From the IMG/VR virus record IMGVR_UViG_3300031519_000002: DNA of 64,000 bases; one strand, given 5' to 3'. A program made the translations under genes and the position numbers. Positions 6,994 to 38,897 of this stretch are shown here, piece by piece. This DNA is from a virus. Positions within the stretch are counted from its first letter, which is position 1; each line of letters starts with the position of its first letter. The notes beneath the pieces were generated by a model. It was not told the DNA's origin. It was given only the letters and a program-made list of their open reading frames with translations, and did not search any database.

Positions 6994-7029
6994 TGTTTGC
7001 TCCGTTCTTGATATTATACATATTTATCA

Positions 7030-12603: not shown

Positions 12604-12620
12604 TTTCTCAACCTTCTAAG

Positions 12621-12628
12621 TATTTATA
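12621..12628 (-). promoter_or_regulatory. T4-type late promoter
   Basis: Perfect TATAAATA upstream of 7030..12603. Confidence 0.8.
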
Positions 12629-12983
12629 CACCCGTTGGGTATGTGTAATCTTCGTTAATTCGTGCTACTAAATTTCCGCTATCGTCAATATAGTAACTAA
12701 TATTTCTGTTATCCCATCTAAATTGTTCATAATTTAAATTCTTATAAAGCCTCTCGTGGTTTACATTTCTTCCTTCAAAGAAATTTTCACCTTGATCAAA
12801 GTCTTCATAGTTATCTGTTGGATCACCTTCTGCGTTAATTGCAATACTATCATGACTTGTAAGTTGATCAACTTTACCTACATACAATTCACCATCGTCT
12901 GTTCTACGCAATCCATAAAAATATCTTGCATCTGTTTGGTCAATCATGTTTTGTATGCTTTGACCTAGAAAGTTATCTGACAT
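12624..12983 (-). CDS. hypothetical (probably virion) protein
   Basis: 119 aa, start overlaps upstream stop codon, within structural operon. Confidence 0.6.
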   Translation of the reverse strand: MSDNFLGQSIQNMIDQTDARYFYGLRRTDDGELYVGKVDQLTSHDSIAINAEGDPTDNYEDFDQGENFFEGRNVNHERLYKNLNYEQFRWDNRNISYYIDDSGNLVARINEDYTYPTGV

Positions 12984-13312
12984 TATACAATCTCCACTAA
13001 GCTAAGAATCACATCAAGTGATTCAGTTGTATCCGACGTAACGTATAATACGTTACCTGCATCAAGAACAATTTTCTCACCCTTGCCAATCGGCTTCATT
13101 GCAGTATTAGGAGGAATAGGCATCCCTTTAATTAGTACACCAATCGAACTTGCTTCGTCACCAACTTCAAGGGTAGCACTTACCATGCCACTTGTTAAAT
13201 TAGCGATATTCATTCCGATAACAGTTGCACTAGTAGCGGCAGGAGTTGTATAAACTGCTACCCGGCTTGTGCCTACTTCTTTTCCTATGATATTTTTAAA
13301 ATTCGTTGCCAT
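12983..13312 (-). CDS. small virion protein, paralog family with 1776..2102
   Basis: 109 aa, VYTTPA motif. Confidence 0.65.
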   Translation of the reverse strand: MATNFKNIIGKEVGTSRVAVYTTPAATSATVIGMNIANLTSGMVSATLEVGDEASSIGVLIKGMPIPPNTAMKPIGKGEKIVLDAGNVLYVTSDTTESLDVILSLVEIV

Positions 13313-13321
13313 CTTTTTTCC

Positions 13322-16300: not shown

Positions 16301-17038
16301 AACCGGATCTTGCGGGTGCGTTCCTGTTCTAGAATCACTACCGTTTGTAGCAACGTATATCAAATTGCCCGGAGTACTAATTAAATCAATAGCACCAAAG
16401 TCTAGGTCATTTGTTGTTAGTGTATTTGTTGTTACGTTAGCAAAGTTACCAGTTGCCCAACGCTTAGATGATGTACCAATATTGTACGTGTTGTCAATGT
16501 CTGGCATAATATCACTAGCAATATCTGCATTAATAAAAATGTTATCAGTGTCATCACTACCAATAGTAATATTGCCGTCTGCACTAATATTTCCAGTAGC
16601 ATGTAGATTACCATTAACAGTAGTGTTACCAATAATGTTAATTTCACCAGTTCCGTTTGCACGAATAAACAAATCACTGTTAGTATTTGTGTTTTCAATA
16701 AAGTTGTTATTAAGTTCTAAGTCGCCTACAATAACTCTGTTACCAACAATAGTATTGTCAGCAGTAGCTATTGAAAATTCTTGTGCAGTAGTTGAAATAG
16801 TGCTAGTAGCACCGTTGATTGTTACATTACCTACTTGGAATGTAGTATTTGTAATTTCTAAGTCGGTAACTCTTGCAGTGCCTGCAATGTCTAATGCGTA
16901 TTGAGGACTAGTGGTTTTTACACCGATTCGACGATTTGTTACATCTAAATATAAAAGGTCTGTCTCAAAGGCCAAATCCGTCCCATTACGTAGGAGGTTT
17001 TCCTTTAAGAGAGGACCCGATATGCGACCAATTGCCAT
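13322..17038 (-). CDS. fibre-like structural protein with ConA/LamG-like lectin domain
   Basis: 1238 aa; KFGTG..FDGTGD...FGFGTGDFSVE...GRIDDFRV LamG-like block; two C-terminal PxG..xRP...G.RYNT modules; paralog of 17178..21227. Confidence 0.75.
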   Translation of the reverse strand: MAIGRISGPLLKENLLRNGTDLAFETDLLYLDVTNRRIGVKTTSPQYALDIAGTARVTDLEITNTTFQVGNVTINGATSTISTTAQEFSIATADNTIVGNRVIVGDLELNNNFIENTNTNSDLFIRANGTGEINIIGNTTVNGNLHATGNISADGNITIGSDDTDNIFINADIASDIMPDIDNTYNIGTSSKRWATGNFANVTTNTLTTNDLDFGAIDLISTPGNLIYVATNGSDSRTGTHPQDPVATIAKGLELAGLHDTVYIYPGQYQEAFPLTVPQGVTVRGHSLRAVEISPTSGTQSNDAFLMQGDSAVEDVTLKDFYYNSGANTGHGFRFANNVRIYERSPYIRNVSVITKGTTTSTDDPRGFASGDAGKGCFIDGAVAHSDSREAAMLFHSVTFITPGVSGLKVTNGARVEWLNCFTYFADKGIEILEGASGLKGDGKTKIKYSGFAGTAVAAGQNIVLKDAGGATLATAAIESIDTNTVIIDGKATGFIKPLSRAKKTVTAVGNAQVSTGTPIKFGTGIGLFDGTGDRFSLTSASDFGFGTGDFSVEGVIYISDDTGTEMMFDFRAGSATDNALNFYTVDRVPKINIGTTSIMAPAITLINTTFYHIMISRVGTTIKFFVDGVQQATASNNTNLGTTKPLIIGSDYAGVNGFAGRIDDFRVRKGAGQASAFTNPTSASIVDQYTVLKLDFDEDSGSQVLVDNDTFIQDVEFSGGGTATALTFIDHSDFGGEIRSIASASVYGNYGIHGTGSGSIVYAIGMNLAYIGTGKDVTNDVTEVIQANEVVANSDANIYFSTVDHKGDFRVGDLFRVNQETGEVTFTNAEFLFNNNQGITFTDGTNTTIIDGTKVEAGNIRVSGNTISSTSGDININSSTGNINLQDNVNITGNLDVTGNVTVGGNITLGDEDTDTININARIDSDIVPNVDDTYKLGTTLLNWSEINVGKVFVDDIIIDNDTITTNASNGDINVTPNGVGQVIIDQLQLSDNIIANLSGDIILDPSSESVTIDATGALILPKGTTAQRPGSPITGMIRYNTDTSVFEAYDGSWIQLGGVYDVDRDTYITPELTPGANDNTLRFYAGGSLVADVTTERFNVARLEVDDIAIHDNVLETITTNEDLVLRANGSGFVTIENFSFNGNVITNTIDGAVTTLKQAGSGYFKVEGTGGFVIPVGNNANRHPSPELGMMRYNTVEDRVEIYDVGNNWVSVAGATGAVTFNDAEEIAIKLALLL

Positions 17039-17039
17039 C

Positions 17040-17157
17040 TTCTCTCCTTAATACGGGGATCCTGTCCCTCTAGCCTAAATTTACAGCTTTCACTCTTTGC
17101 TGGCTAACCACAGTTTGTCTCTGCAAAGAGTATAGTTGGTCTTCTTTGCATTACTAT
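17040..17157 (-). ncRNA. candidate structured 5' leader RNA (cis-regulatory)
   Basis: About 118 nt between a TATAAATA promoter and the start codon; stems TGCAAAGA/TCTTTGCA, TTAGCC/GGCTAG, CTGT/ACAG, and an alternative ACTCTTTGC/GCAAAGAGT. Confidence 0.5.
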
Positions 17158-17165
17158 TATTTATA
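17158..17165 (-). promoter_or_regulatory. T4-type late promoter
   Basis: Perfect TATAAATA upstream of structured leader and 13322..17038. Confidence 0.8.
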
Positions 17166-17177
17166 CGATTTTGAAAT

Positions 17178-20100
17178 TTAATCTAGTATAAGGTTGAATA
17201 CGTATGCTAAATCTTCAACGTCTGAAGATTCAATACTTTCAACTTCGCCAGCCGCATTAATCCACGCAGTTCCGTTCCATGTTTCAACATACTGTACTTG
17301 TGTATTGTAACGTGTGTGTCCAACTTCGGGCGATCCAGGTCTTGCGGCCGTGTTACCTTGTGGTACAACCATACCGCTCGTATTCTCAATTTTTAAGAAA
17401 GATGTACCGCTAGGATTAGTTAAATTAATTATAAAATTACTACTAGTATTATTAAGTAACTCACCATCTCTAAATTTAAGAGTGTTAATAACAGTATGTC
17501 CTGTGCCATTAGATCGTAATATACTATTACCATTAGCATCATCTGCTGATACAATAGCACCGTCAATACTAAATTTACCCCCACTGCTAAATCCATTTGA
17601 TTCCAGCAATGTTCCGTTTAGTGTATGATTTGTTACGTTATTTGTAGTAAAGTTAAATTGGTTATTTGAAAGATCAAGGTATGTATTACGATCTGTATCG
17701 TATATTCCTGCTAAACTAATTGCGCCGGCAACTTCGAGTCCTTCAAATGTGTCAAAAGTATTATTGTATCTCAGTCCTGCTTGTATTGCCGGACGTTGTG
17801 CTGTAGTACCTTTTGGAATTCTTAAATCTTTATTTGCACTTATACTTAAATTTTCAGTTGGTGCAAAATTAACATCGCGCTTTGTTCCGCCTAGATTATT
17901 TGTTACACTTGTCCAATAATCAATTGAAGGACTGTTTGCAATAGGCAAGTAGTATGATGCAGTGTTTGCTATTGATAATCCTGTTGGGTCAGCGTCATCT
18001 AATAATACACTAGTGTAGGGGTCCCATAAAGATCCAATAGTTGCCGATCTCCAAGTTAAACTTCCTGCCATAGTCGCTGTTAGCAAATACAAATATTCGT
18101 ATACTAAGTCGTTATAACTTAGTCCAGTTGGGTCAGTATACCAAGCAAATGCTGGATAGTTATAACCAGCTTGTCCGCCACCTTGATATCCGCCGCGAGC
18201 CGTGTCTAACGCCGTCGTAAGCGTACTTGATCTAGTTGTGCTTAGTGCTGAGTACAATCCGCTTATTCTTGGAATAAGCATGGTCTTTAATATTTTTTCA
18301 CTAGCTAGGTCTCTATTAGAGCTTGCTCCGTCTCCTAAGAAATTATTCATTTCGCTTTCGTACACAGCAAACGTTCTGTTTATAGCAAACGATCCAAATG
18401 TACTTGCTAATGATGTTTTTTCTGTTGAGTTAGCATACACAACAATACCGTACAATCCATCTGCAAACGTATTAAGTAGTGCTGTGTTTTCGACAACACC
18501 GTCAAAGTTATTATCAAGATAACTTGCTAACATATTTGCGGCATGCTTAATTGCGTTGTCAGATACTGTAGCAGTTCCTAATACCGGAATTCCAAATACT
18601 GTAGTATACCTAGGTAATTGAGTTTTAAAGGATGAATAGCCATTAAAAATTGTAGGTGTTGATAGTTCATAATCGTTAACAACAAACACACCGCTTGGAC
18701 TAAACTTACCAATAATTTTATTATCTTCAAGTTCAATATTACTTACTCTAACTTTACCAGTTCCTAAAGCAGTAATATATAAGTCTGCATTTGATTCGTT
18801 TGTTGAAATTAATTGTGATGATATAGAAATGCTATTAATAACTGCTGTCGTTGCATTAAGTTCTTTCCAGCGATGTGTTGCTGTACCTAATACCAATCCT
18901 TCAGTTGACCCTGGTTCAAAGTTTTGACTAATGTTAGTATTGAAGTCAACAGTATCATTGCTATTATCGCCAATGGCACTAACTGCGCCACTTACACTTA
19001 AATTGCCTGATAATTCTACACTAGGTGCAAATACATTACCTTGGAATACAATGTTTCCTGCGCTGTTAAAGTTTATTTCGGATCTAGTTGTTTGTAAAAT
19101 GTTTCCGTTAATTACAATATTATCTAAGTTTACTGTGCCAGGATTAATTGTAACAACATCATTTCCGTTTCTAATTTGTACTTGTGAGTTATTTGCAAAA
19201 ATACTTTCAATGTCAAAGCTAGTTCTTTCGTTTTCTAAATCAACATGGAAGTTGTCACCGATTCTAAAGTTACCTTTATGATCTTGTCCTGTAAAGTAAA
19301 CCTTTGCACTATTTAATTCTACTACTTCGTTTGCTTGTATTGCCAATGTATTATCATTAGTAACACTTTTCCCTGCACCAATATATGCAAAGTTATGATT
19401 AACCATGTATGCTAAACAACTAGCACCATCTGCTTCAATGCCTTTATTACCGTATACGTTAGCACTTGCAATAGTTCGTAGTTCAGCACCATAGACTGTA
19501 GTTCCGTCTTTTGCTGTTCTACCCGAACCCTGTGATATATAAATGCCCCTGTTAGCAAAGTAAGTAAAACTGTTGAGCCATTCAACTCGTACACCGTTTG
19601 TAATTGTTAATGCATCTACACCAGGAGTAATAAATGTGCAACTATGGAATAACATACTTGCTGATATACTATTTTGATTAACAACTGCTCCGTCAACTAA
19701 TGCTCCTTTACCAGCATCGCCGCTTGCAAATCCTCTTGGGTCGCTTGCACTTGTTGTTGTGCCTTTAGTAAGAACTGTTACGTTTCTAATATAAGGGCTT
19801 CTTCCCGGCTCTTGTTCAAAAATAGTTGTTGTAAAATTAGTAACAAGTCTAAAACCGTAACCTGTATTGGCGCCACTGTTATAATAAAAATCTTTAATTG
19901 TTAAATTTTCAATCGTAACATCACTGTTAACTAAAAATGCATCATTACTTTGCGTTGCAGAAGTTGGAGAAATTTCAACTCCTCTAATGCTGTCACCTTG
20001 TATAGTAACGCCTTTTGCAACTGTTAACGGAAATGCTTCTTGATACTGTCCCGGATAAATGTAAATTAAATCACCATCGCCTGCTAGTGTTAATGCTTTA

Positions 20101-21227
20101 GCAATCGATGCAAATGGTCCACCTGGGTTTGTGCCTGTGTTAGTGTCAGCACCGTTATTACTACTAACATATATAATACCAACGTTTTTTGTTAATTCAA
20201 TACCTTGATAAACTAGCCCATTTGCTTTTATGCTGTCTGCAATTAACTCCGTGACAGCAATTTTAAATCGCTTGTTAGGCCCAGTACTATCATCGTCTTT
20301 ACCAATGTGAAATCTATCACTATCATCTGGTATTAAATCATTTTTAAATTCTGCTAAGAAACTTGCAGTGTCAGTACTATCGTCACCAATAGTAATCGAT
20401 CCGCCGCTGTATGTAATATTTCCAGTAGCATGTACATTACCTGTTACTGTTAGTGTATCGCCAGTTTCTAATTGAAGTCGTCTAGGAGCTGATGTAGGAT
20501 AATATTTTTCGATATATGCTTTAAATGCTGTTGTGTTTGCATGGTCTGCTAATGTTGAAGATGCAGGGTATGCAACTCCACCAACAAATGCTGTATTCAT
20601 TGTTCCTAGTTTAAGAACGTCATCTGCTTGTATATCACCGTCACCGTCAAAGTCTAATGCCGCAAGCTCTTCTGCGTTCCAGTTGCCTGATTGTGATAAT
20701 GATAATGCGTAATCATACAACCTATTCATGTCATTAGGAGTACTACTTGCGCTAGTTATTGGTCCTGGGCTCCAGTAATTACCGTAGTTGCTGTTTAATT
20801 CCCAGGCTACAGTTTGTCCGTCGAGCACTTCTGATCGCAGGCCAATGCCGCCGTTAGTTTGCAATGCTATAATGCCGTCGCCTTTAATTGCAAAATTATT
20901 ACTGCCAATTCCGGTAGTAGTAATATACCCTTCAGCATGTGTAGATTTTATAGTTACATCGCCACTTGCTTGACTTATACCAGTAGTTGCTAGTGTAATA
21001 TCACCAACTTTAAAACTATTGCCAAAGACAATATCAGGATCACTATTACCTGATGCTGTACGTAACGTACCTGCGATTGTTAAATTTCTAGGAGTAGTAG
21101 TTGTGTTAATACCAAGAGTGTTATCTCTTTTTACAACTAAGAGGTCTGTGTCAAACGCAAGGTCTGCAAGTTCTCTTTGTAAATTGTCTTGTAATAACTG
21201 TCCACCAATGCGGGCGACTTGTGCCAT
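17178..21227 (-). CDS. fibre-like structural protein, paralog of 13322..17038 with different inserted domains
   Basis: 1349 aa; shared N-terminus (RIxGxLLxxNLxR...DLAFxTDLL), shared YIYPGQYQEAFPLTV and DPRGFASGDAGKG blocks. Confidence 0.75.
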   Translation of the reverse strand: MAQVARIGGQLLQDNLQRELADLAFDTDLLVVKRDNTLGINTTTTPRNLTIAGTLRTASGNSDPDIVFGNSFKVGDITLATTGISQASGDVTIKSTHAEGYITTTGIGSNNFAIKGDGIIALQTNGGIGLRSEVLDGQTVAWELNSNYGNYWSPGPITSASSTPNDMNRLYDYALSLSQSGNWNAEELAALDFDGDGDIQADDVLKLGTMNTAFVGGVAYPASSTLADHANTTAFKAYIEKYYPTSAPRRLQLETGDTLTVTGNVHATGNITYSGGSITIGDDSTDTASFLAEFKNDLIPDDSDRFHIGKDDDSTGPNKRFKIAVTELIADSIKANGLVYQGIELTKNVGIIYVSSNNGADTNTGTNPGGPFASIAKALTLAGDGDLIYIYPGQYQEAFPLTVAKGVTIQGDSIRGVEISPTSATQSNDAFLVNSDVTIENLTIKDFYYNSGANTGYGFRLVTNFTTTIFEQEPGRSPYIRNVTVLTKGTTTSASDPRGFASGDAGKGALVDGAVVNQNSISASMLFHSCTFITPGVDALTITNGVRVEWLNSFTYFANRGIYISQGSGRTAKDGTTVYGAELRTIASANVYGNKGIEADGASCLAYMVNHNFAYIGAGKSVTNDNTLAIQANEVVELNSAKVYFTGQDHKGNFRIGDNFHVDLENERTSFDIESIFANNSQVQIRNGNDVVTINPGTVNLDNIVINGNILQTTRSEINFNSAGNIVFQGNVFAPSVELSGNLSVSGAVSAIGDNSNDTVDFNTNISQNFEPGSTEGLVLGTATHRWKELNATTAVINSISISSQLISTNESNADLYITALGTGKVRVSNIELEDNKIIGKFSPSGVFVVNDYELSTPTIFNGYSSFKTQLPRYTTVFGIPVLGTATVSDNAIKHAANMLASYLDNNFDGVVENTALLNTFADGLYGIVVYANSTEKTSLASTFGSFAINRTFAVYESEMNNFLGDGASSNRDLASEKILKTMLIPRISGLYSALSTTRSSTLTTALDTARGGYQGGGQAGYNYPAFAWYTDPTGLSYNDLVYEYLYLLTATMAGSLTWRSATIGSLWDPYTSVLLDDADPTGLSIANTASYYLPIANSPSIDYWTSVTNNLGGTKRDVNFAPTENLSISANKDLRIPKGTTAQRPAIQAGLRYNNTFDTFEGLEVAGAISLAGIYDTDRNTYLDLSNNQFNFTTNNVTNHTLNGTLLESNGFSSGGKFSIDGAIVSADDANGNSILRSNGTGHTVINTLKFRDGELLNNTSSNFIINLTNPSGTSFLKIENTSGMVVPQGNTAARPGSPEVGHTRYNTQVQYVETWNGTAWINAAGEVESIESSDVEDLAYVFNLILD

Positions 21228-28731: not shown

Positions 28732-30459
28732 TTATGCCTCTGCCGGGGCTTCTGGTGCCGGGGTGGTTACTGAGTCAGGACCTTCGCCTGCTCCAACAAT
28801 TTCGCCGCCTTCGCCGCCTTCAAGTTCATCAACGCTTGCATCTAGGTCTGCATCCATACCAGCACCTGTAATACCTGCGCCACGCATTTCGCCTGCCGCA
28901 TCAGTAGGTGATGTTGTGATTAACTCATCGTTCTCTTCTTTCCAGTAACGTTCATTTTCTGCAACTTCTGAATCGCTCATTCCTAAGAAACGTTTCATTG
29001 CATATCTATTACTAATAAACGGAATAGTTTGTATTTGTGCAAATGTACCAATACGCTGATTATCTAATTCACTTTGTCTGTAACTTGCAAAGTTTTGTGG
29101 TGGTTGGAATAAAAGATCAAACATTGCAATATCAACGTTAATACCCTTTTCTATTAGATAGCGTTTAAACTCTTGGTTAAACACTTCTGCAATTAGATTT
29201 TGTAAACGTTCGCAATACTTGTTAAAGCGTAGTTCTTGAATATATGCTGTACCTACTCTACCATCACTAATTTGTGCGCCAACGTCATCTTGCGCCGCGG
29301 CTGGTAAGTAACTACTTGGAATACGCAATCCTCTAACAAGTTTGTTAGTAAAGTATTTTAGATCGTCAATCTCACCTAAGTTAGTTCCGCCTGGCAGTGT
29401 TTCAACTTTAGAACCTCTACCTTCAGCAGTTTGTGGGAAGAAGTAATCTTCGTTAGTTGACAAAGGGTTATAAGCTGAGTCTATGACTGATGTTCCGCCG
29501 CCTGTCTTCGATGGGATTCGCCTTTGATGAATTTCCGTTTTAACACGCTCAACAAATTGCATAGCAAGGTGTGATGGCATGTTGCCCACATCAACGTAGA
29601 ATACTCTTCTTTCCGGAGCTCGTTGTGTACGATAGATAATAATCGCATCTTCAAGCAATTCTTTTTGTTTGTATACTTTAAAGATACCTTCAAGTAAACT
29701 GTTACCAAAGGGTGCATTGTTGTCTAACCCTTCTGATAAACTTAGGTGTACCATATGTGCGGCATCAACTGCAATTTCTTTTGTTTTGTCATGCCCAAAT
29801 CTACCAGCACTTGAACCAGAGGTTTGTGTGTTGCCAACCATACCTCTAACGCCACCTGTTAAATATCCGTCTCCACCACCAGTTGCATTACCGTTTGTTT
29901 GGAAAGGAGTTGTAGCTACGTTGTCAATAAAATTTAAGTTAATATCTCTTACAATATATTGCTCAGGAGTTTTACCTTCTGATTCATTAACAATAATACT
30001 TGAAACTTTTGCAGGATCAACGTGATGCCATTTTGCAGTTTCTGGATCTCTAATAAAAAATGCATCGCCGTATTTAAAAACATTACGAACAATTCTAAAC
30101 ATACGTGTACCAAAGTTATTCATTTTAGTCCACTGTTGTAAGTATTGCTCAAGTACTTTAACTTCTGAGTTAGTTGCTATTTTCTTAAAATCAATACTAA
30201 AACTTGTTTTATTGATTGGATTCTGTTGTGAGCAAAATTCAGCAAGAATATCTAGTGCCGCATTTACTTCACTATCTTGATCCATAGTATTGTATTGACC
30301 GTAACGCTCAACTCTGTTAGGAGCGCCTGTGTAAACATCTGGAAGGAAACTGGAGTAATTAGACCTTGCTGGTCCGGGTTGCTGGCCTTGTCCCATACTT
30401 AGCGGGCTACGTGTACCTGCGTCACCTTCAACTGGTGTAAAATATCTTTTCCAACTCAT
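28732..30459 (-). CDS. gp20: portal vertex protein
   Basis: LLEDAIIIYRTQRAPERRVFYVDVGNMP, EDYFFP..EGRGSKVETLPGGTNLGEIDD motifs. Confidence 0.97.
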   Translation of the reverse strand: MSWKRYFTPVEGDAGTRSPLSMGQGQQPGPARSNYSSFLPDVYTGAPNRVERYGQYNTMDQDSEVNAALDILAEFCSQQNPINKTSFSIDFKKIATNSEVKVLEQYLQQWTKMNNFGTRMFRIVRNVFKYGDAFFIRDPETAKWHHVDPAKVSSIIVNESEGKTPEQYIVRDINLNFIDNVATTPFQTNGNATGGGDGYLTGGVRGMVGNTQTSGSSAGRFGHDKTKEIAVDAAHMVHLSLSEGLDNNAPFGNSLLEGIFKVYKQKELLEDAIIIYRTQRAPERRVFYVDVGNMPSHLAMQFVERVKTEIHQRRIPSKTGGGTSVIDSAYNPLSTNEDYFFPQTAEGRGSKVETLPGGTNLGEIDDLKYFTNKLVRGLRIPSSYLPAAAQDDVGAQISDGRVGTAYIQELRFNKYCERLQNLIAEVFNQEFKRYLIEKGINVDIAMFDLLFQPPQNFASYRQSELDNQRIGTFAQIQTIPFISNRYAMKRFLGMSDSEVAENERYWKEENDELITTSPTDAAGEMRGAGITGAGMDADLDASVDELEGGEGGEIVGAGEGPDSVTTPAPEAPAEA

Positions 30460-30483: not shown

Positions 30484-32763
30484 CTATTGCAAATTGCCTT
30501 TAAGCTCTCTAGTTGCTGTAGTGTTCTTTTTAAATTCGTCTTTTAACTCGTCTATCTTAGTACTTAGCTTATCCCACCAACTATCACCCTCTGCTTCTGG
30601 AGTAGTTGTTGATCCGCTAGTATCTGATGATGTTGTTGATCCGCTTGTATCTGGTACTGTTACTGGTACTGTTACTTCTGGATTAGCTGTAGTTGTACTT
30701 GGTTCTGAAGCTGTTGGGCCTGCCGCTAACTTATTTTTAACCCAGTCTGGGGTCCAGCTAGGTAATGACTTTAATAGCCAGGCTTTAATATTTTCCCAAT
30801 TAAATATACTCGAAATGCCTGCTACTATAGTGTTAAACTTCTTACTAATACTTTTACCTAGTTCAGATGCGCTAAATTTGTCTTTGATTCCTTCCCAATC
30901 AAACACTGAAGCAATACCTGCAAATAGCAAAGTAGCTATTTTAACCCAAGGATTTAACGTGGCTAACATTTTAACTATTAACGTAGTAATTCCTAATCCA
31001 ATAGCTACCCATCCTAAGTTTTCAAATATTGAGCTAAACGCACTACTCAGTAATGGCTTTATTGTATCTATGAATAACTTTTTAGGATCAGTGAATAACT
31101 TTTCAAAGAACTCTACAATAGCAGGTTTGTATTTTGTCCACAGATCACTAAGTGTTGAAAACATACTTGACATTGTTGATATTATGCCGCCTTCACGTTG
31201 ACCGCCTCGAGAGCCGCCTGGTTCGTTTGGTATTTTTTCGCCCATAAACAAATCAGTTATAGATGCTATGAATTTAGTAACTCCATTTTTCATCATAGTT
31301 AAGCCATCACCCTTTAGCCATTCCCATGTTTTTGTAATAGATGGTAATACGTTGTCTGTAAATTCTGTAGATAATTTATCAAACATAGTTTTAGCTTCTT
31401 CACCTGACGGAATTAGATTAGCAATCATATCGCTTGCATCTTTAAAGATTCCACTGTCAACAAACGCGGCTTGTATTTTGCCTTGAATAGTTGCAACTGT
31501 TTCAGCAAAGGTCATTAGTTTTGCGGTAAGTGCATCACGTGCGCCTTGTTCTTTATCTGTGGCACCTTCTTGTGTTGTTTGTGCTCTTTGAAGTTGACCA
31601 GTCACCTGAAGGTATTCTGCCGCACTTCCGCCTGCCGCCATTGCGGCTTGTACACCAGCATCGCCCAGTGTTTTGGCAAATTTCATACCGTCCTTGCCAA
31701 CATTTACAGCAAACTCCGCGGCTTGTTCAGCCGTCATATTCTGTATGTTTTGTGCTTGTGTTCTAAACGTTTCGTTGTTGGCCATTAACTGTTGTGTAAG
31801 TGGATCGTTAGCAACTCCGTCAGCCATATCTAATAGTGCGGCTTCAAGTTGTGGAGATGTTGCAGACAGTGACTGTAAATTGAGGGCAAACTGTTCACCG
31901 TGTTTATTAATAGCCATTTGTCTACGAATGTCTAAATTCTTTGACTTCATTTCTGCTTCTAAATCTTTACGACTCTTACCAGTAAGTCTAGATATTTTAT
32001 CTAGTTCGCTTGAATATTTTAATGAACCATCAATTAATTGTTTATTGGTCATGTTCGATCTGCGACCTGACACTTGCATCATTTCGCTGTAGCTAAGAAA
32101 GTTTTCGTTTAGGTCTTGGCTTGTGAAACCTAATTCCATCATTCGTTGCCCAATTGGACTTTGTCTTAATTCTTTTGACAACCCTGCAAATCGTTTGGCA
32201 CCATCTTGTACAGTGCCGCCGAAGATACGCATTCCTACAGTGTTTTCTGCTATCAGCGCCGCAAAGTCTCTTTGTGGTATTGCCGCCTCACCTGCAATTT
32301 TAGTTAACTCAAACATATTATTACCAAAGCCGGCACCAATAGTTGATAACTCTCTAAATGTTCCTGCTTGTTGATCAAGTACATTAGTTAACGAAGCAAG
32401 TCCAGGAATTGGAAGGTGTTGAGCAAAATCTGTTAGTTGTTGTCCGCCAAATGCTAGTTCTTTTGCTAAACCTGGCAGTGTACCAACTACTGCACCAATG
32501 CCTGCTAATAGTCCGTTAAGTGCTCCGCCTATTACGCCTGTTAATGCGCCGCCAAAGGCTTTAACAGCACCTGTTGATTCTTTAGTTGCGGCAGTGTTTT
32601 TCTTTTTAGATTCAGTGTTTTTCTTATCACCATTGTCAGTTGGTGATTGAGGGACGCCTTTCCCTGCAAGAAGTTTAGCAATTTCTTTAAGCGTAGATTC
32701 AGAAGCCGCATTATTAGCAGTAATTTCTCCTAATCCAGGAATATCTATTTTTACGTCGGCCAT
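30484..32763 (-). CDS. tape-measure-like protein (gp29 analogue)
   Basis: 759 aa, Ala/Gly-rich helical protein with hydrophobic segment LGWVAIGLGITTLIV...IATLLFAGIASVF; divergent from gp26-like gene. Confidence 0.7.
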   Translation of the reverse strand: MADVKIDIPGLGEITANNAASESTLKEIAKLLAGKGVPQSPTDNGDKKNTESKKKNTAATKESTGAVKAFGGALTGVIGGALNGLLAGIGAVVGTLPGLAKELAFGGQQLTDFAQHLPIPGLASLTNVLDQQAGTFRELSTIGAGFGNNMFELTKIAGEAAIPQRDFAALIAENTVGMRIFGGTVQDGAKRFAGLSKELRQSPIGQRMMELGFTSQDLNENFLSYSEMMQVSGRRSNMTNKQLIDGSLKYSSELDKISRLTGKSRKDLEAEMKSKNLDIRRQMAINKHGEQFALNLQSLSATSPQLEAALLDMADGVANDPLTQQLMANNETFRTQAQNIQNMTAEQAAEFAVNVGKDGMKFAKTLGDAGVQAAMAAGGSAAEYLQVTGQLQRAQTTQEGATDKEQGARDALTAKLMTFAETVATIQGKIQAAFVDSGIFKDASDMIANLIPSGEEAKTMFDKLSTEFTDNVLPSITKTWEWLKGDGLTMMKNGVTKFIASITDLFMGEKIPNEPGGSRGGQREGGIISTMSSMFSTLSDLWTKYKPAIVEFFEKLFTDPKKLFIDTIKPLLSSAFSSIFENLGWVAIGLGITTLIVKMLATLNPWVKIATLLFAGIASVFDWEGIKDKFSASELGKSISKKFNTIVAGISSIFNWENIKAWLLKSLPSWTPDWVKNKLAAGPTASEPSTTTANPEVTVPVTVPDTSGSTTSSDTSGSTTTPEAEGDSWWDKLSTKIDELKDEFKKNTTATRELKGNLQ

Positions 32764-32790: not shown

Positions 32791-32828
32791 CATAAATATA
32801 TACGAGCTACACTACAATAGTATTTAGC
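32791..32828. promoter_or_regulatory. face-to-face late promoters
   Basis: CATAAATA on plus (32791-32798) and GCTAAATA on minus (32828-32821). Confidence 0.65.
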
Positions 32829-32841
32829 AGGAGATATAAAC

Positions 32842-33768
32842 ATGGTAGATAATAACTTCCCACAAAACATGGGACAACCGGGTATTCCGATGGGACAACC
32901 CGTACAACCAGCTGGAAATCCGCTGGCAAAACACTTACGACAACCTAAGATTTACATCAAATTGCCAAGTAACGGTGAGTACTGGCCACAAGCGGCATTG
33001 AAAAAAGTAGAAAATGGTGAGTATCCAGTATATGCGATGACAGCCAAAGATGAAATTACAATGAAGACTCCAGATGCGTTATTAAATGGGCAAGCAACTG
33101 TTGATGTGATTCAAAGTTGTTTTCCTAATGTCATTGATGCTTGGCAGTGTCCATCGATTGACCTTGATGCAATTTTAGTTGCAATTAGAATGGCAAGTTA
33201 CGGCGAAGCAATTGATATGTCAGCAATGGTTCCACAAACAGAAATTACTAAGGACTTTCAACTCGATCTACAGACAATCCTTGACAATTTAACTAACACA
33301 GTATACGAAGATACATTTTCAATTCCTGGATTCAGAGTTCAAATTGTACCTATTACATATAGACATGCAACTCAACAAGCTATCAAGGCTTTTGAAGAAC
33401 AGCGTATCTTTGCTACAGTTAACGATGATGGGCTTACTGAAGAGGTAAAATTAGAACGTTTTTCAAAGAGTTTCAGTAAACTAACTGATATTAATATCAA
33501 TGTAGTTGTTAATAGCGTAGTTGCCATTCAGCCAGAAGGTGATGAGGTTGCAGTAACTAACAAAAATCATCTAAGAGAATTTATTGAAGGTGCAGAAGCT
33601 GGTGTGTTTAATGCTATACAAGCACATATTGCAAAGCAAAAAGATAATTTCCAGCAAAAGCCTATTAAGATGGAAGCTACTGCTGAGGAGATGGAAGCAG
33701 GTGCTCCGGCAACTTATGATCTTCCGATTACATTTGATCAATCAAATTTTTTCGGCTCCGGATCTTAA
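32842..33768 (+). CDS. gp26: baseplate hub/tail assembly chaperone, T4 gp26-like
   Basis: RQPKIYIKLPS, VYAMTAKDE, DLDAILVAIRMASYGE, terminal FDQSNFF motifs. Confidence 0.8.
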   Translation: MVDNNFPQNMGQPGIPMGQPVQPAGNPLAKHLRQPKIYIKLPSNGEYWPQAALKKVENGEYPVYAMTAKDEITMKTPDALLNGQATVDVIQSCFPNVIDAWQCPSIDLDAILVAIRMASYGEAIDMSAMVPQTEITKDFQLDLQTILDNLTNTVYEDTFSIPGFRVQIVPITYRHATQQAIKAFEEQRIFATVNDDGLTEEVKLERFSKSFSKLTDININVVVNSVVAIQPEGDEVAVTNKNHLREFIEGAEAGVFNAIQAHIAKQKDNFQQKPIKMEATAEEMEAGAPATYDLPITFDQSNFFGSGS

Positions 33769-33807
33769 CATGGCCCCTCGATAAAATCCTATCCGAGGTT
33801 AAGGTCC
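33744..33807 (+). promoter_or_regulatory. programmed -1 ribosomal frameshift signal (candidate)
   Basis: Overlapping in-frame heptamers A_AAT_TTT (33744-33750) and T_TTT_TTC (33747-33753); 6-nt spacer; stem GGATCTTAAC (33760-33769)/GTTAAGGTCC (33798-33807). Confidence 0.75.
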
Positions 33808-33983
33808 TAGAAGGTGATGTTAAAGAAATAAAATCAGGCTTATTGAAAATAACCTGGTGGATGCGTGGAGGTATTACTCTAGCAGAAGCATATTATCTGA
33901 CAGTCGAAGACAGAGAATTAATCAACGATATCATTACAGAGAATTTAGAAACTGCTAAAAAGATTAATCAACCTTTTTGGTAA
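33753..33983 (+). CDS. gp51-like segment in -1 frame, probably expressed as a fusion with the gp26-like protein
   Basis: Hand translation RLRILTWPLDKILSEVKVLEGDVKEIKSGLLKITWWMRGGITLAEAYYLTVEDRELINDIITENLETAKKINQPFW*; frame closed upstream by TGA at 33735; no ATG until mid-segment. Confidence 0.7.
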   Translation, partial: RLRILTWPLDKILSEVKVLEGDVKEIKSGLLKITWWMRGGITLAEAYYLTVEDRELINDIITENLETAKKINQPFW

Positions 33984-34829
33984 TTAGAGTTCTTCGCCGC
34001 CTTTGTAAACTGTATACCCGGCTTTCTTAACTGCCGCAATTTCTTTGTTTACATTTGGTGCTTTTTTACCCTTAGGCGCTTTTGCTTTTGCTTGTGTAGC
34101 ATTATCTGCACTACTTGAGTCTGGTGCATCAGCATAAGCACTTTTTTCAGCACCCTTACCAGCGTTTGCGGCCATACCTTGTTGTACAAACTTCTTAATA
34201 GCTTTCATTACCATAGTTTTATCAAGTACTGCATCAGCTTCCATAATTGAGGCTTCACTATACATACTTGCGCCTAACTTTGTAAACTTTCCAGCTTTAC
34301 TACGTCCTACAGTAACTTTACTTGGATCAACGATTGGTTCACCGGCTCCAGTTTTACCGATACCAGTGTCTTGAGGAGTAACTCGTTGCTTTAATGCCTT
34401 AGCCGCACTAGCTACTTTACTAGCACCACTCTTTGCTACGCCTGCAACAGCTTTTGAACCTGCCGCAACTGCACCGCCTGCTACTGCCGCGCCTTTAGCT
34501 ACTTTTTTACCAGCTTTAGCGGCTTTCCTGCTAAAACTTGGATCTGAATTAATATAAGCCATTACAGCTTTTGGTGAACTAACAAAGCCTTTGTTAACTA
34601 AAAATTTACCTAGTGCTTGTGCTGTCATTTTTCCAGTTGGAGAGTTCTTTGAAATAGCATAAAAGTCTTTAAAAATGTTTTTTGCTTCACGTTCAACCTC
34701 TACATCTAACTGTGCGGCTTTACCACTAGCTGTGTTCTTGCCCAATGTACGTTTTGCAAATCGCAATGGTCCTTCGTCAACTGATGTGTCAATTTTTTTA
34801 GATTCAGTTAATATGTCAAATACTTTCAT
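33984..34829 (-). CDS. basic Lys/Ala-rich protein, candidate internal head protein
   Basis: 281 aa; N-terminus MKVFDILTE; own late promoter CATAAATA at 34858-34851. Confidence 0.6.
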   Translation of the reverse strand: MKVFDILTESKKIDTSVDEGPLRFAKRTLGKNTASGKAAQLDVEVEREAKNIFKDFYAISKNSPTGKMTAQALGKFLVNKGFVSSPKAVMAYINSDPSFSRKAAKAGKKVAKGAAVAGGAVAAGSKAVAGVAKSGASKVASAAKALKQRVTPQDTGIGKTGAGEPIVDPSKVTVGRSKAGKFTKLGASMYSEASIMEADAVLDKTMVMKAIKKFVQQGMAANAGKGAEKSAYADAPDSSSADNATQAKAKAPKGKKAPNVNKEIAAVKKAGYTVYKGGEEL

Positions 34830-35051: not shown

Positions 35052-35055
35052 TTTT

Positions 35056-35467
35056 AACTTCATGTAGATTGTTTTAGTCAGACGGAACCTGTTACGGCCC
35101 CGTCGTCTTTGAAGAAAAACTTCATGTGAGTTCGTCACAGCCAAGACATTGGAAATAGGTATTTGTTTATACACAAGTTTGATGGGCTCTGATCTTTCCC
35201 AACCTACATCGACATTATGTAACATAAAGGATACATTAAGCTAGTTAATGCAATCTCTATAGTACAATATTCCCTCGCTTCGTTCCTGGTGCTAAAGGGT
35301 TTTTACAAACTATGTTGTGTTTTTCAACTGCCAACAAGCAATCTATATCAACCAGTGAGCCCAATTTGTTTGGTGGCTTCCTACCTCTGGGTAGTCGATC
35401 AATATGTACGTGTGCTTCTATACGAGAGCTTTTTCCACAGCGGTATTACTAAACTGGCCCGCCAACC
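35056..35467 (-). ncRNA. candidate large structured non-coding RNA
   Basis: About 410 nt without a credible ORF; several long-range helices whose G-U pairs only work on the minus strand; see findings. Confidence 0.6.
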
Positions 35468-35902
35468 TTATGTGTTGGAATGTTTTGCCTGTAAGTGTTC
35501 TTTAAGAATTTTTGATCCGCCAACTCTAACATTAATAATACCATTGTAGTATTGATCTGTTTCGAGTACTCTGCGTTCAAACTGCTCTCGTGCCTCTAAG
35601 TAACTTGCTATGCCTCTGCTAGGACAAATATGAATAATTTCTCTTATAAAATTATCTTCGCCTAACTCTAAAACGTCTGCATTAAGTCTGTCACTGGAAC
35701 CGTAATAGGTTTGCCAATCACTTTCTTTAGTGCTACGTCTTTTGTTTTTTTTGCCTTTGAGTGGTTGTTTTGTTACTTTAAATTTTGCTAGTTTTTTGCC
35801 TACGTACATCATGCCATTGGATTTATTTGTTATCAAGTATACAAAAGCTTCACAACCTTCTGGTAGTTCGTCTATTGTGTTACCCTGATAAGTCCATTGC
35901 AT
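35468..35902 (-). CDS. GIY-YIG-like endonuclease (single domain)
   Basis: Likely start MQWTYQG at 35902; AFVYLITN...MYVGKK, YYGSS, YLEAREQ, YYNG motifs. Confidence 0.75.
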   Translation of the reverse strand: MQWTYQGNTIDELPEGCEAFVYLITNKSNGMMYVGKKLAKFKVTKQPLKGKKNKRRSTKESDWQTYYGSSDRLNADVLELGEDNFIREIIHICPSRGIASYLEAREQFERRVLETDQYYNGIINVRVGGSKILKEHLQAKHSNT

Positions 35903-35933
35903 CAAGTACTTACCGTTGCCTGTGTTATTATGC

Positions 35934-36122
35934 CTAAGTCTTGGAATTATGCTTGTCGTGTATCTCATCCATACGAAGTTTGGCAAGAGAGCGTATCTCT
36001 CTTAACCATCTTCTTGACTCTCTATGAGTCCGTACAGAGTTTCTTGCCTCAAACTTTTCGTTTGCCTTAAAATAAGCCATATAAGCCTTAGTTAATTTGT
36101 CGTGTGTATCGTCGTCATTCAT
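35934..36122 (-). CDS. small basic helical protein (possibly Hc1/histone-H1-like family)
   Basis: 62 aa, start overlaps gp46 end; R/K-rich C-terminal helix. Confidence 0.5.
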   Translation of the reverse strand: MNDDDTHDKLTKAYMAYFKANEKFEARNSVRTHRESRRWLREIRSLAKLRMDEIHDKHNSKT

Positions 36123-37890
36123 TGTGTACTTCTACATCGTTCTCATAATTTGTAAATCCGTTTTCTTTGATTACTTTAAGAACATGTGTAACTCTTCCTA
36201 CTAATTCATCTTTGTGTGAGATAAGATAAACGTTTTTGTCACGTTCTCTCCCCATTTTCTTAAGAACACTGAGTGCATTTTCAACGCCTGCTGTGTCCAT
36301 ACCGCTATCAATCAGCTCGTCGATAAACAACAAGTTAATGTTTTGATATAGACTTTCCCAAACATCACGGAATGCAAAGCTCATACCAAGTATAAGTCTG
36401 TTACGTTCGCCTCTTGACAAGTTATCAAAGTCTAAATCTTGTCCTAGCTGTGTGATCTCAACGTTCAAATCGTTTTGGAATACAACTTGATGTGGTAATC
36501 CTAGCTTATCAAGATAGTTAGTAAGTCTGTTGTTTAAGTATGCTAAATTCTGATCAATAATCTTCTTACGAATAAAGCTATCTTTGTTAGTTAACAGTTT
36601 TAACAAGAAGTCTTGATGATCTTTAAGACTTGTTAAGTCATTAACAACTGACCAATTAATTTCCTGCATAGCACTATTGTTTAGTTCGTCAATTTGTGCT
36701 TGATACGGATCAGCATCGTTTTCTTTACTAGATAATGCTTGCTTCAATCCATCAACATTTTGACGATGCTCGTATGCTTCCTTAGCAGTTTCGTAAAACG
36801 TAGTAGGTTTGCCGTTAATGTCACCAATTTCTCCAAGTGCTACTGTTACGCTAGTAACCTTAGTTGCAATCTCTGCTTGATATGCAATAGCATCAGCAAG
36901 TTCTTTAGATTTACGCTCTGCAATCTCTGCTTTTTTATCTGCATGTAGTTCTTGACCACAGGTATAACACGTTGCATCATCTAAATTTACAATGTCTTGT
37001 TTTGCTTTTTCAACAGACTTATCAGCACGTACTAGTGCAGGTTCTAGTGTACTAAGTTCTTTTTTAAGACCCATTATAGCATTGTTATGTTCTGACCAAT
37101 TTGATAATTTTTCATGCAGATCTAGTTCAGTATCGATGTCTAAATGTTCTAGTTGATCAATTCCTGTTTGCAACTTAATGACGTCTTGATCTTTTTTAGC
37201 AATCCATGCACGTTGGGTACGTTGTAAACTTTCAACAGTTCCGCCAATCTTTTCATTAGCACTTTGAATAGCATTAATCTTTATAGTTTCTTCTTGAATA
37301 GAATCTTTTGTTTGTCTTACTCGCTCTTTAAGACTATCTGCCTTTTCACTCAATATAGTAATACCGAGTAACTGTTCAATAATGTCTTTTTGATCGTTAA
37401 CTCGCATACTCAAGAAAGGTTCGGTGTATGTATTAAGTGCAACAATGTGTTTAAACATGTTGTGAGTCATTCCCAGCAAGTAACTAATTTCTTCTTGTGT
37501 TTTACGACTGTCGCCCTGTGACTCGTCTGACATTTCTTGCTCTTGACCATTAACAAAGAACCGTAACACATTAGGTGAACGACCTCGTTCAATTTTATAC
37601 TGTTTGTTATCTTTCTCAAAAGATAGTGTAACAAGCATACCTTTGTTGTTAGTTTTATTAATTAGGTTGTTGCGCTTGATGTTTGTTAAAGCAAGGCCGT
37701 ATAATGCATACGAAAGTGCGTTAATGATGGTAGTTTTACCAGTGCCATTACGACTTCCGCTGTCATCACCGCCTTGGTCTAAGTTTTCACCTAATACAAG
37801 TGTTAGCTGTTGCTTATCAAAAGAAACTGCCTGGGTTTGATTGCCCACACTCATAAAATTCTTAACTGTAAGATCTTTAAACTTTATCAT
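36115..37890 (-). CDS. gp46: recombination endonuclease ATPase subunit (Rad50/SbcC-like)
   Basis: Walker A NGTGKT, zinc hook CYTC, signature LSRGE, Walker B LLFIDE, ISH. Confidence 0.95.
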   Translation of the reverse strand: MIKFKDLTVKNFMSVGNQTQAVSFDKQQLTLVLGENLDQGGDDSGSRNGTGKTTIINALSYALYGLALTNIKRNNLINKTNNKGMLVTLSFEKDNKQYKIERGRSPNVLRFFVNGQEQEMSDESQGDSRKTQEEISYLLGMTHNMFKHIVALNTYTEPFLSMRVNDQKDIIEQLLGITILSEKADSLKERVRQTKDSIQEETIKINAIQSANEKIGGTVESLQRTQRAWIAKKDQDVIKLQTGIDQLEHLDIDTELDLHEKLSNWSEHNNAIMGLKKELSTLEPALVRADKSVEKAKQDIVNLDDATCYTCGQELHADKKAEIAERKSKELADAIAYQAEIATKVTSVTVALGEIGDINGKPTTFYETAKEAYEHRQNVDGLKQALSSKENDADPYQAQIDELNNSAMQEINWSVVNDLTSLKDHQDFLLKLLTNKDSFIRKKIIDQNLAYLNNRLTNYLDKLGLPHQVVFQNDLNVEITQLGQDLDFDNLSRGERNRLILGMSFAFRDVWESLYQNINLLFIDELIDSGMDTAGVENALSVLKKMGRERDKNVYLISHKDELVGRVTHVLKVIKENGFTNYENDVEVHNE

Positions 37891-38897
37891 AGTTCTTCAT
37901 ATATTCCTAATAATAGTTTCTTGTCGTAGCTTTCTGTGTCGATTGCAGATATTTCCTTTGTAACAATCTGATCCACACTTTCAAATGTAGTAATATCAAT
38001 GTCGGTATGTATTTCATCATCCTTTTGACTAGGAATAAGTGTAATCTCTCGACAGTCGTAATCGTTGATAAACGTTTCTTTAATAAAACTTGCTTCTTCG
38101 TAACTAATCGGTAAGTCAAGTGTTACTCTCAAGTACATTTTAGATTTTAACAACGTGTCTTTTTGATCTAACAGTTGGCTAAGTTTAACAGTACGATACT
38201 TAGGACAGTCGATCCAATTAAGATATTCAGGCTCTTTGTTGTTTTCTTTGTCAAGTATCATCATGCCACGTTCGTCATCCCACGCATCTGCATAGTTGTG
38301 CGGAAAAGCATTACCAATATAATGAACTTGACCTTGTACTTGCCGTTTATGAAAGTGTCCACTAAACACATAGTCTTGATGTTTAAAATGTGATGCTTGC
38401 AGTTCTCCGTGATCGGGCATTTGCACCATTGCGTTCATATAGAAGCTAGGAAGTTCAAAATGACCAAACATATACTTTGTTTTGATATTAGACATATTCT
38501 TCCACTCATCGCCTACTAACCACGGAACAAGTGCAACGTCATCTTCAACGAGTATCTCGTCAATATATGTAATGCCCGGAATATGTTTTCCAAACTCTAT
38601 ACTGTAAACATCTCGCTTGTCTTTATAATATAAATCGTGATTACCTGCAAAGAAGTAAAACTTCTCAAAAGCCGCTCCTAGCTTTTCAAGACACCTAGTA
38701 GTTGAATCTAGTGTTTGCACGTTAATAGTGTTTCTATTATGATGCCAGTCACCACAAAAAATACCAGTTTCGCAACCGTTAGCTTTTGCTTGTGCAATAA
38801 ACCAATCTACAAATTCTTCACAGTCTTGCAGATGAAGTCGACTATTTGACTTTAACCCAAGGTGTATGTCAGTAAATACTGCCGCTTTTTTAAACAT
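37887..38897 (-). CDS. gp47: recombination endonuclease nuclease subunit (Mre11/SbcD-like)
   Basis: DIH, GDWHH, GNHD, GHFE, SGHFH metallophosphoesterase motifs. Confidence 0.95.
   Translation of the reverse strand: MFKKAAVFTDIHLGLKSNSRLHLQDCEEFVDWFIAQAKANGCETGIFCGDWHHNRNTINVQTLDSTTRCLEKLGAAFEKFYFFAGNHDLYYKDKRDVYSIEFGKHIPGITYIDEILVEDDVALVPWLVGDEWKNMSNIKTKYMFGHFELPSFYMNAMVQMPDHGELQASHFKHQDYVFSGHFHKRQVQGQVHYIGNAFPHNYADAWDDERGMMILDKENNKEPEYLNWIDCPKYRTVKLSQLLDQKDTLLKSKMYLRVTLDLPISYEEASFIKETFINDYDCREITLIPSQKDDEIHTDIDITTFESVDQIVTKEISAIDTESYDKKLLLGIYEEL

Follow-up and report, generated by a model that had tools for sequence, protein, structure and literature searches.

In long-tailed phages the tail assembly chaperones are, as a general rule, produced as a frameshift pair, and T4-type phages have been treated as the exception. 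A locus in an uncultured marine T4-like phage raises the question of whether one of its assembly genes is expressed in the same way. The locus lies in a 64,000-nt stretch of DNA (IMG/VR record IMGVR_UViG_3300031519_000002; hereafter the window), in which a gene for a baseplate hub assembly protein of the T4 gp26/gp51 family is overlapped at its 3' end by an open reading frame (ORF) that occupies the -1 frame and has no start codon where it opens. This arrangement is best explained by fusion of the two ORFs through a programmed -1 ribosomal frameshift, as proposed in a preliminary description of the window, and in our judgement that explanation is a very probable one. It is supported by comparison of a slippery heptamer, the start-less ORF, a covarying stem-loop and naturally fused relatives.

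The hub gene begins with an ATG at 32842, preceded by an AGGAG ribosome site, and its 308 codons are followed by a TAA at 33766-33768. The 308-aa product matches the Pfam family PF12322, T4_baseplate (E 4.2e-10; 40.1 bits, with a curated cut-off of 24.5), and PHROG 150, 'baseplate hub' (E 4.2e-12), and a DNA-level search of the region against a phage collection returned no match. About 45 nt 5' of the ATG, at 32791-32798, the sequence CATAAATA was seen by eye; it differs by one mismatch from the T4 late-promoter box TATAAATA and would fit late expression.

The 3' end of the gene reads ...TCA AAT TTT TTC GGC TCC GGA TCT TAA and contains two heptamers, A_AAT_TTT and T_TTT_TTC, that both sit in the X_XXY_YYZ register; the preliminary description had regarded both as slippery. 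Their conservation was followed in 135 distinct loci that are split in the same manner, drawn from three scans of IMG/VR (the queries being the hub protein, aligned small products and aligned natural long forms) and from the cultured phages 121Q, PA5oct and Vibrio 2.275.O. At all 135 loci the small ORF occupies the -1 frame relative to the hub gene, and an in-frame TTTTTTC lies within the ORF overlap in the X_XXY_YYZ register. Only this second heptamer is conserved, whereas the codons before A_AAT_TTT vary (AGT AAT, GCA CAT, TCG CGT, ACA GAT and others), and a contribution of A_AAT_TTT to the shift was therefore rejected.

The coding of the slip site departs from the usage of the genes that contain it. 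The site is written TTT TTC in every one of the 135 loci, always after a codon ending in T, and the base that follows the heptamer is G in 134 of them. Elsewhere in the same 135 hub genes TTT accounts for 81% of Phe codons, and the 43 other Phe-Phe pairs are written TTTTTT (19), TTCTTT (16), TTTTTC (6) or TTCTTC (2). By this measure of codon choice, the heptamer is conserved beyond the requirement of the hub protein. The fixation of its nucleotides is accounted for if translation of the -1 frame begins within the heptamer as Phe-Phe-Arg, and since that reading has no upstream start, it requires a change of frame at the heptamer. U_UU.U_UU.C is among the efficient -1 heptamers in Escherichia coli and is used by insertion sequence (IS) elements (Sharma et al. 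2014, PMC4066793). Four phages examined apart from the 135 loci, RaK2, GAP32, SCTP-2 and Munch, are split in the same way and have T_TTT_TTC, and the giant Xanthomonas phages XacN1 and Xoo-sp13 have T_TTT_TTT followed by A in place of T_TTT_TTC G (at ~1986-1992 of the XacN1 locus, L185, and ~2364-2370 of the Xoo-sp13 locus, L188). The -1 product of these two phages begins FFYSAIK.., matching an in-frame relative, L123 (..QFYSQLIS..).

The -1 frame of the window opens at 33738, right after a TGA, and runs for 81 codons to a TAA at 33981-33983. No start codon is found at its opening, and its first ATG encodes an internal conserved Met in a WWMRGG motif. A short frame at 33770 (ATG-GCC-CCT-CGA-TAA) was rejected as irrelevant, being in the +1 frame and four codons long. 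A shift at the heptamer would join 304 residues of the hub protein to 76 residues from the -1 frame, and the predicted products are thus of 308 and 380 aa. The extent of the open frame, the missing start and both product sizes are as first described. The -1 product has no match in PHROGs, Pfam or NCBIfam. Its profile found 385 protein matches among 1.8 billion cluster representatives, and tblastn located the 81-aa product directly 3' of the hub gene in Agrobacterium phage Atu_ph07 and Sinorhizobium phage Phosso. The lack of a start extends to most homologs: no ATG, GTG or TTG occurs from the opening of the -1 frame to 12 codons past the heptamer in 97 of the 135 loci, and in 32 the heptamer is the very point where the frame opens. 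The 0 frame reaches its stop one codon (98 loci), three (25), four (10, the window included) or six (2) beyond the heptamer. The interval in which a shift could take place is bounded by stops in both frames, and a change of frame is therefore confined to a few codons. Conservation of the peptide begins at FFR, that is, inside the heptamer.

A stem-loop is predicted immediately downstream (Table 1). In the window its outer stem comprises 10 bp with one G-U pair, starting 6 nt past the heptamer, and together with an inner CUCG/CGAG helix it forms the minimum-free-energy fold; these pairings had been noted in the preliminary description. Averaged over the 135 loci, the folding energy of 50-nt segments is -13.0 kcal/mol for the segment starting +5 nt after the heptamer and about -5 elsewhere, and at this dip the mean z is -2.4, with 81% of loci below z -1. 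The 5' arm begins 5-6 nt past the heptamer across clades whose sequences differ (GGAUCUUAAC, AGCCUAAUUAG, GGCUUCUGUAC, GGCUUUCGUCG and others). Among 35 diverse sequences, picked for folding with a distal 3' partner, an 11-bp outer helix is 94% paired and shows compensatory changes in 8 of its 11 pairs, in a region that also codes for protein; as a control, sliding the 3' partner by 1-3 columns gives pairing of 24-51%. For the inner helix the paired share of cells in these 35 sequences is only 54%, and this helix is therefore specific to the clade of the window.

Several points weigh against a frameshift at this site. Taken by itself the hairpin of the window folds no better than shuffled sequence (z = -0.53), so that a single sequence proves little. 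The covariation set was selected for the distal partner, as stated, and in other clades the 3' partner of this 5' arm lies nearer. In addition, an ATG overlaps the 0-frame stop in some relatives (ATGA in Atu_ph07 and Phosso, TAATG in 121Q); translation coupling is possible in such lineages and might coexist with the shift. The last point bears on an alternative in which the downstream ORF is translated alone, as a protein of ~70-80 aa, by termination-reinitiation or from a non-canonical start, and no fusion is made. Besides the ATG codons that overlap or abut the hub stop in these three phages, it can draw on the separate small genes that annotators have given in GAP32, XacN1, Munch, SCTP-2 and the Vibrio phage, and on the many versions of 40-98 aa that gene callers list in a large protein collection. 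We nevertheless consider it very improbable, for the conserved N-terminal part of the peptide contains no ATG, GTG or TTG in the 97 loci counted above and its conservation starts within the heptamer itself. Atu_ph07 and Phosso owe their ATG solely to the use of TGA as the hub stop (..A TGA), and the corresponding codon of Atu_ph07 is CTA, ATA, GTA or CTC in other loci. Independent translation would also leave the synonymous choice at TTT TTC free, yet that choice is invariant, and the in-frame long forms described below show that the domain works attached to the body of the hub protein.

A second alternative to the ribosomal frameshift is that RNA polymerase slips on the run of six Ts and adds one U to some transcripts, which ribosomes then read normally. 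The site is indeed a homopolymer run, of seven Ts in the XacN1 group, and bacteria and viruses are known to reach the same outcome by transcriptional slippage (PMC5009743). Against slippage, the run is held at exactly six Ts followed by C and always lies in the X_XXY_YYZ register. The conserved, covarying stem-loop lies 5-6 nt downstream, a position from which it can pause a ribosome, and is untranscribed while the polymerase is on the run, and the absence of the hairpin at that moment favours a ribosomal rather than a transcriptional event. Moreover, productive slippage by bacterial RNA polymerases usually needs runs of ~8-9. We give polymerase slippage very little credence.

The outcome expected of a ribosomal frameshift, a hub protein extended by the -1 domain, is encoded directly in some relatives. 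Among the best 150 profile matches, 17 are proteins of 319-351 aa with the domain in frame at the C-terminus, and 8 of 80 IMG/VR loci found through the WYMRG motif are single-ORF long forms; overall, natural single-ORF relatives with the C-terminal domain span 319-357 aa. The fused proteins came from the representative search, and a 'longer' search of a 5.8-billion-protein collection with the small-product alignment found none. A profile of 36 long forms matches both ORFs of the window in order (E 5.7e-50 and 7.9e-25) and nothing else in it, and a sequence search of the PDB with the long-form profile gave nothing. An AlphaFold2 model of one long form (P0029; predicted local distance difference test, pLDDT, 90.9; predicted template modelling score, pTM, 0.88) places the added domain, residues 259-334, as helices within one compact model. 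As judged from these relatives, the fused architecture is a real protein. The junction of the long forms reads ..FRxKLI.. with one Phe codon (TTT CGC, TTC CGA etc.). Because of this single Phe codon, and since the long forms fall in divergent clades, the idea that they are one-nucleotide assembly errors was rejected. The converse error, a miscall of one nucleotide that breaks a single 380-aa ORF, might be suspected from the error-prone nature of homopolymer runs and from the single-ORF long forms of relatives, but is scarcely credible: the same split with the same frame relation recurs in independent metagenomes, at 135 distinct loci, as well as in at least 11 isolates that have been sequenced, and the junction of the true in-frame forms shows a single Phe codon instead of a T7 run.

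The number of PF12322 genes in a genome follows the presence of the slip site. T4 has two such genes (26 and 51), and the complete frameshift-type genomes of Atu_ph07, 121Q and PA5oct have one each. In each of three large IMG/VR contigs that have an in-frame long form, two PF12322 genes lie side by side, a long one with the domain (337, 350 and 325 aa) and a short one that ends at the junction (335, 283 and 305 aa), and two large frameshift-type IMG/VR contigs carry one each. The rule of either one gene with a slip site or two genes thus holds in 9 of 9 genomes, a small sample in which four of the five IMG/VR contigs are by estimate only 53-74% complete and the fifth 90%, and in which copy number was counted in relatives, not in the genome of the window itself. 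The counts are consistent in all nine with the notion, built on gene content, that every phage supplies both forms, short and long, whether by having two genes or by having a slip site in a single one. In the two-gene contigs the short paralog adjoins the long one (913-2835 of L189, 841-2735 of L190 and 1091-3113 of L191). The short paralog lacks CxxC pairs in two of the three (L190 and L191), like the window gene, and the long one retains them.

For decades it has been unclear what T4 gp26 and gp51 do. The two proteins, of 208 and 249 aa, are hub assembly chaperones (Leiman et al. 2010, PMC3004832), and gp51 is needed for assembly and is absent from particles (PMC3004832). Residues 1-206 of gp26 and 1-201 of gp51 both match the whole PF12322 profile (E 8.8e-64 and 3.9e-52, respectively), and the two are therefore paralogs. 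The ~48 extra C-terminal residues of gp51 constitute Gp51_C (PF28602, Pfam 38.1), an annotation present on gp51 homologs. T4 and the window thus have the PF12322 family in common, and in both a short form stands beside one that is extended by a C-terminal domain. The end of T4 gp26 (..KEFFELL*) falls at the equivalent junction, where the window gene would slip. Unlike the window gene, however, T4 gene 26 is followed by gene 25 without a downstream ORF and writes its Phe-Phe as TTC TTT. T4 has two divergently transcribed paralogous genes and no frameshift, whereas the phage relatives of the window have one gene; and Gp51_C is ~48 aa long, compared with 76 aa for the domain of the window, the similarity between them being weak.

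We think it likely, on sequence comparison, that the 76-aa domain is homologous to the C-terminal domain of gp51. An hhalign alignment places domain positions 41-66 on the last 26 residues of gp51, with shared ..ER..I..IIE.. blocks. With a hidden Markov model (HMM) built from the window-type domain, positions 41-68 fall on residues 222-249 of gp51 in many homologs (best E 0.013), and an HMM of the gp51 tail matches several of the domains (best E 0.003), with reversed controls at E 0.16 or worse. The nearest neighbours of the domain in the ESM Atlas include clusters in which 35% of members carry Gp51_C (score 0.92). Two considerations tell against the homology: the hhalign comparison has a P of 0.002 but a probability of 14%, and the HMM E-values of 0.003-0.013 came from very small databases. 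BLASTP of the two window products against T4 gp26 and gp51 gave nothing meaningful, hhalign of the small-product or long-form alignment against the single T4 gp51 sequence gave probabilities of 2-7%, and a whole-length profile-profile alignment against gp51 aligned only 78 columns of the shared domain. The preliminary description had called the downstream ORF gp51-like, and what stands of this is a weak likeness to the C-terminal domain of gp51 and to that domain only. Since gp26 and gp51 are paralogous, it is the short product that would be gp26-like and the complete frameshift product that would be gp51-like.

Two further observations concern the family itself. By hhalign, long-form residues 36-107, ending at the first CxxC, align to T4 gp26 residues 112-198, ending at the last CxxC, and this alignment of an N-terminal third with a C-terminal half hints that PF12322 is an internal duplication of a unit ending in a zinc-knuckle-like CxxC. 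In Acinetobacter phage vB_AbaM_Berthold (MN709128.1, 119798-120547) a gp51 homolog is annotated as 'tape measure protein assembly chaperone', so that the chaperone reading of gp51 is present in at least one annotation already, though with no frameshift attached to it.

The -1 frameshift of tail assembly chaperone genes is conserved among long-tailed phages (Levin et al. 1993; Xu, Hendrix and Duda 2004, both as related in PMC5009743), and the window gene resembles lambda G/GT in several respects. The heptamer lies close to the chaperone gene's 3' end, an N-terminal body would be common to both products, and a tape-measure-like gene is adjacent. The window gene differs from lambda in having a body of ~300 aa with extra domains (PF12322), compared with ~100-140 aa, and in using U_UUU_UUC with a covarying stem-loop; its protein has no detectable sequence similarity to lambda-type chaperones. 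It is also divergent to the tape-measure candidate, which it abuts with no tube gene beside it, whereas the lambda pair lies between the tube and tape-measure genes. The pairing of an X_XXY_YYZ heptamer with a downstream stem-loop is shared with E. coli dnaX (tau/gamma) and with orfAB of the IS3 family. Unlike in these cassettes, no upstream Shine-Dalgarno-like stimulator is evident in the window, and the shift would extend the protein, whereas that of dnaX truncates it.

A structural comparison with tail assembly chaperones points in the same direction. The N-terminal domain of the window protein (residues 33-172), folded alone, gave an AlphaFold model with pLDDT 86.9. Of 48,161 representative chains, its joint best matches were the HK97 tail assembly chaperone (2ob9_B; Z 5.9, root-mean-square deviation 3.2, 76 residues) and the Bacillus subtilis prophage protein YqbN (3klu_A; Z 5.9, 79 residues). 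These were the only two chains with Z >=5; 31 chains reached Z >=2, and the next unrelated chains had Z <=3.0. The likeness concerns the first ~90 residues of the body common to both products. A Z of 5.9 is modest and tempers the case for a chaperone fold, although the ranking is specific. The chaperone-like match appeared only with the N-terminal domain folded alone. Foldseek against the PDB found no match for the whole long-form model or for the N-domain model, VIA-align of the whole long-form model against the PDB found only generic helical hairpins at residues 110-240, and in a viral model library the whole long-form model matched only 'baseplate hub' proteins. The analogy to lambda G/GT holds in logic, and a common fold and a common ancestry of the two systems are both probable. 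Thus the proposal that gp26 and gp51 are the G/T equivalents survives as a short/long pair with a chaperone-like body, but not as a mapping of gp26 to G and gp51 to T, since both are PF12322 paralogs.

The adjacent tape-measure candidate encodes 759 aa and has no Pfam, PHROG or NCBIfam match; BLASTP against T4 gp29 gave nothing. Tape-measure families make up 26 of its 30 named look-alike clusters in the ESM Atlas (score 0.93), a result that serves as a lead only, and the positional counterpart in RaK2 is annotated as similar to tape measure protein. The tape-measure character ascribed to this neighbour in the preliminary description is thus upheld as a lead, with no family match behind it. In PA5oct the hub protein carries no virion mass-spectrometry note and its neighbour has one.

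A model for expression of the hub gene can be drawn from these comparisons. The gene would encode a hub/tape-measure assembly chaperone of the T4 gp26/gp51 family. Most ribosomes would pass U_UUU_UUC and stop four codons on, releasing the 308-aa short form. A fixed minority would pause at the stem-loop 6 nt downstream, where both tRNA-Phe could re-pair one base further back (from UUU UUC to UUU UUU), and 76 codons decoded in the -1 frame would then yield the 380-aa long form with its helical C-terminal domain. The two forms would share the chaperone body and differ only in the C-terminal domain, as do lambda gpG and gpGT, and by analogy with T4 gp26/gp51 both may act together in assembly of the central hub and tape measure. 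The sequences themselves show the signal with its conservation, the covarying stem, the reality of the fused architecture and the pattern of one gene or two; that ribosomes actually shift, in what ratio the products are made and what role each form plays is what we infer. A broader proposal is that the gp26/gp51 family is the T4-type homolog of lambda G/GT and that the -1 frameshift is ancestral across most T4-related phages (the giant RaK2-like and Atu_ph07-like phages and the marine and freshwater T4-likes), T4 and a few other lineages having replaced it by gene duplication, with one short and one long gene; we regard the case for this as evenly balanced. The view in the preliminary description, that this lineage retains a frameshift link between the two, likewise presupposes a direction of evolution.

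Table 1. Positions of the features discussed. Coordinates are those of the window unless a phage locus is named.
Feature	Position	Strand	Remark
0-frame gene, short product 308 aa, T4 gp26/gp51-family baseplate hub assembly protein	32842-33768	+	PF12322, PHROG 150
Slippery heptamer T_TTT_TTC (U_UUU_UUC), predicted -1 shift site	33747-33753	+	135/135 loci
Second heptamer A_AAT_TTT, not conserved, probably irrelevant	33744-33750	+	Preceding codons vary
6-nt spacer, heptamer to stem	33754-33759	+	Read from sequence
Predicted stem-loop	33760-33807	+	Outer stem 33760-33769 with 33798-33807; inner 33777-33780 with 33794-33797
-1-frame coding part, 76 codons + TAA, predicted helical C-terminal domain of long product	33753-33983	+	Conserved peptide family
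Conserved -1 ORF in cultured giant phages	RaK2 L183 2013-2243; PA5oct L020 2343-2579; Atu_ph07 L001 3001-3246
Divergent neighbour of 759 aa, candidate tape measure protein	30484-32763	-	ESM Atlas lead
gp20-type portal	28732-30459
gp46/gp47-type nuclease subunits	36115-38897

The surroundings of the hub gene have features of their own. The product of the next gene, at 33984-34829, has no match in PHROGs, Pfam or NCBIfam. A SegE-type GIY-YIG homing endonuclease gene (35468-35986, minus strand; PF19835, E 3.5e-32) is placed between the structural genes and the gp46/47 genes, and beside it, at 35053-35467, ~400 nt are without a long ORF. Very large ORFs, unusual even among T4-like phages, occupy 2134-21227 on the minus strand and 41179-64000 on the plus strand (1619, 1857, 1238, 1349, 931, 908 and 1178 aa), and one of more than 4097 aa runs out of the end of the window.

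The frameshift of tail chaperones is itself known; what appears to be new, as far as the literature searches go, is its occurrence in this family and phage group. Full-text literature searches found no report of a frameshift in gp26/gp51-type genes, and a major review of recoding (PMC5009743) makes no mention of one. In GenBank the -1 ORF is unannotated in RaK2 and PA5oct, is truncated in Atu_ph07 (gp687, from an internal Met) and is given a downstream start, with loss of the conserved N-terminus, in GAP32, XacN1, Munch, SCTP-2 and Vibrio 2.275.O. A genuine slip would call for correction of many phage annotations, such as those of RaK2, PA5oct and Atu_ph07, which omit the second ORF, truncate it or assign it an arbitrary start.

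A real slip would also mean that a large, environmentally abundant group of T4 relatives uses the logic of G/GT, and that gp26 and gp51 are the short and long members of one chaperone pair whose mechanism is open to direct experiments. Should the frameshift prove ancestral as well, all long-tailed phages would have the chaperone frameshift in common, and the 'catalytic' role of gp51 could be put to the test. Finally, if ribosomes do slip at this heptamer, frameshifting and gene duplication would be interchangeable answers to the same problem of stoichiometry, and this family would provide a clean natural example.

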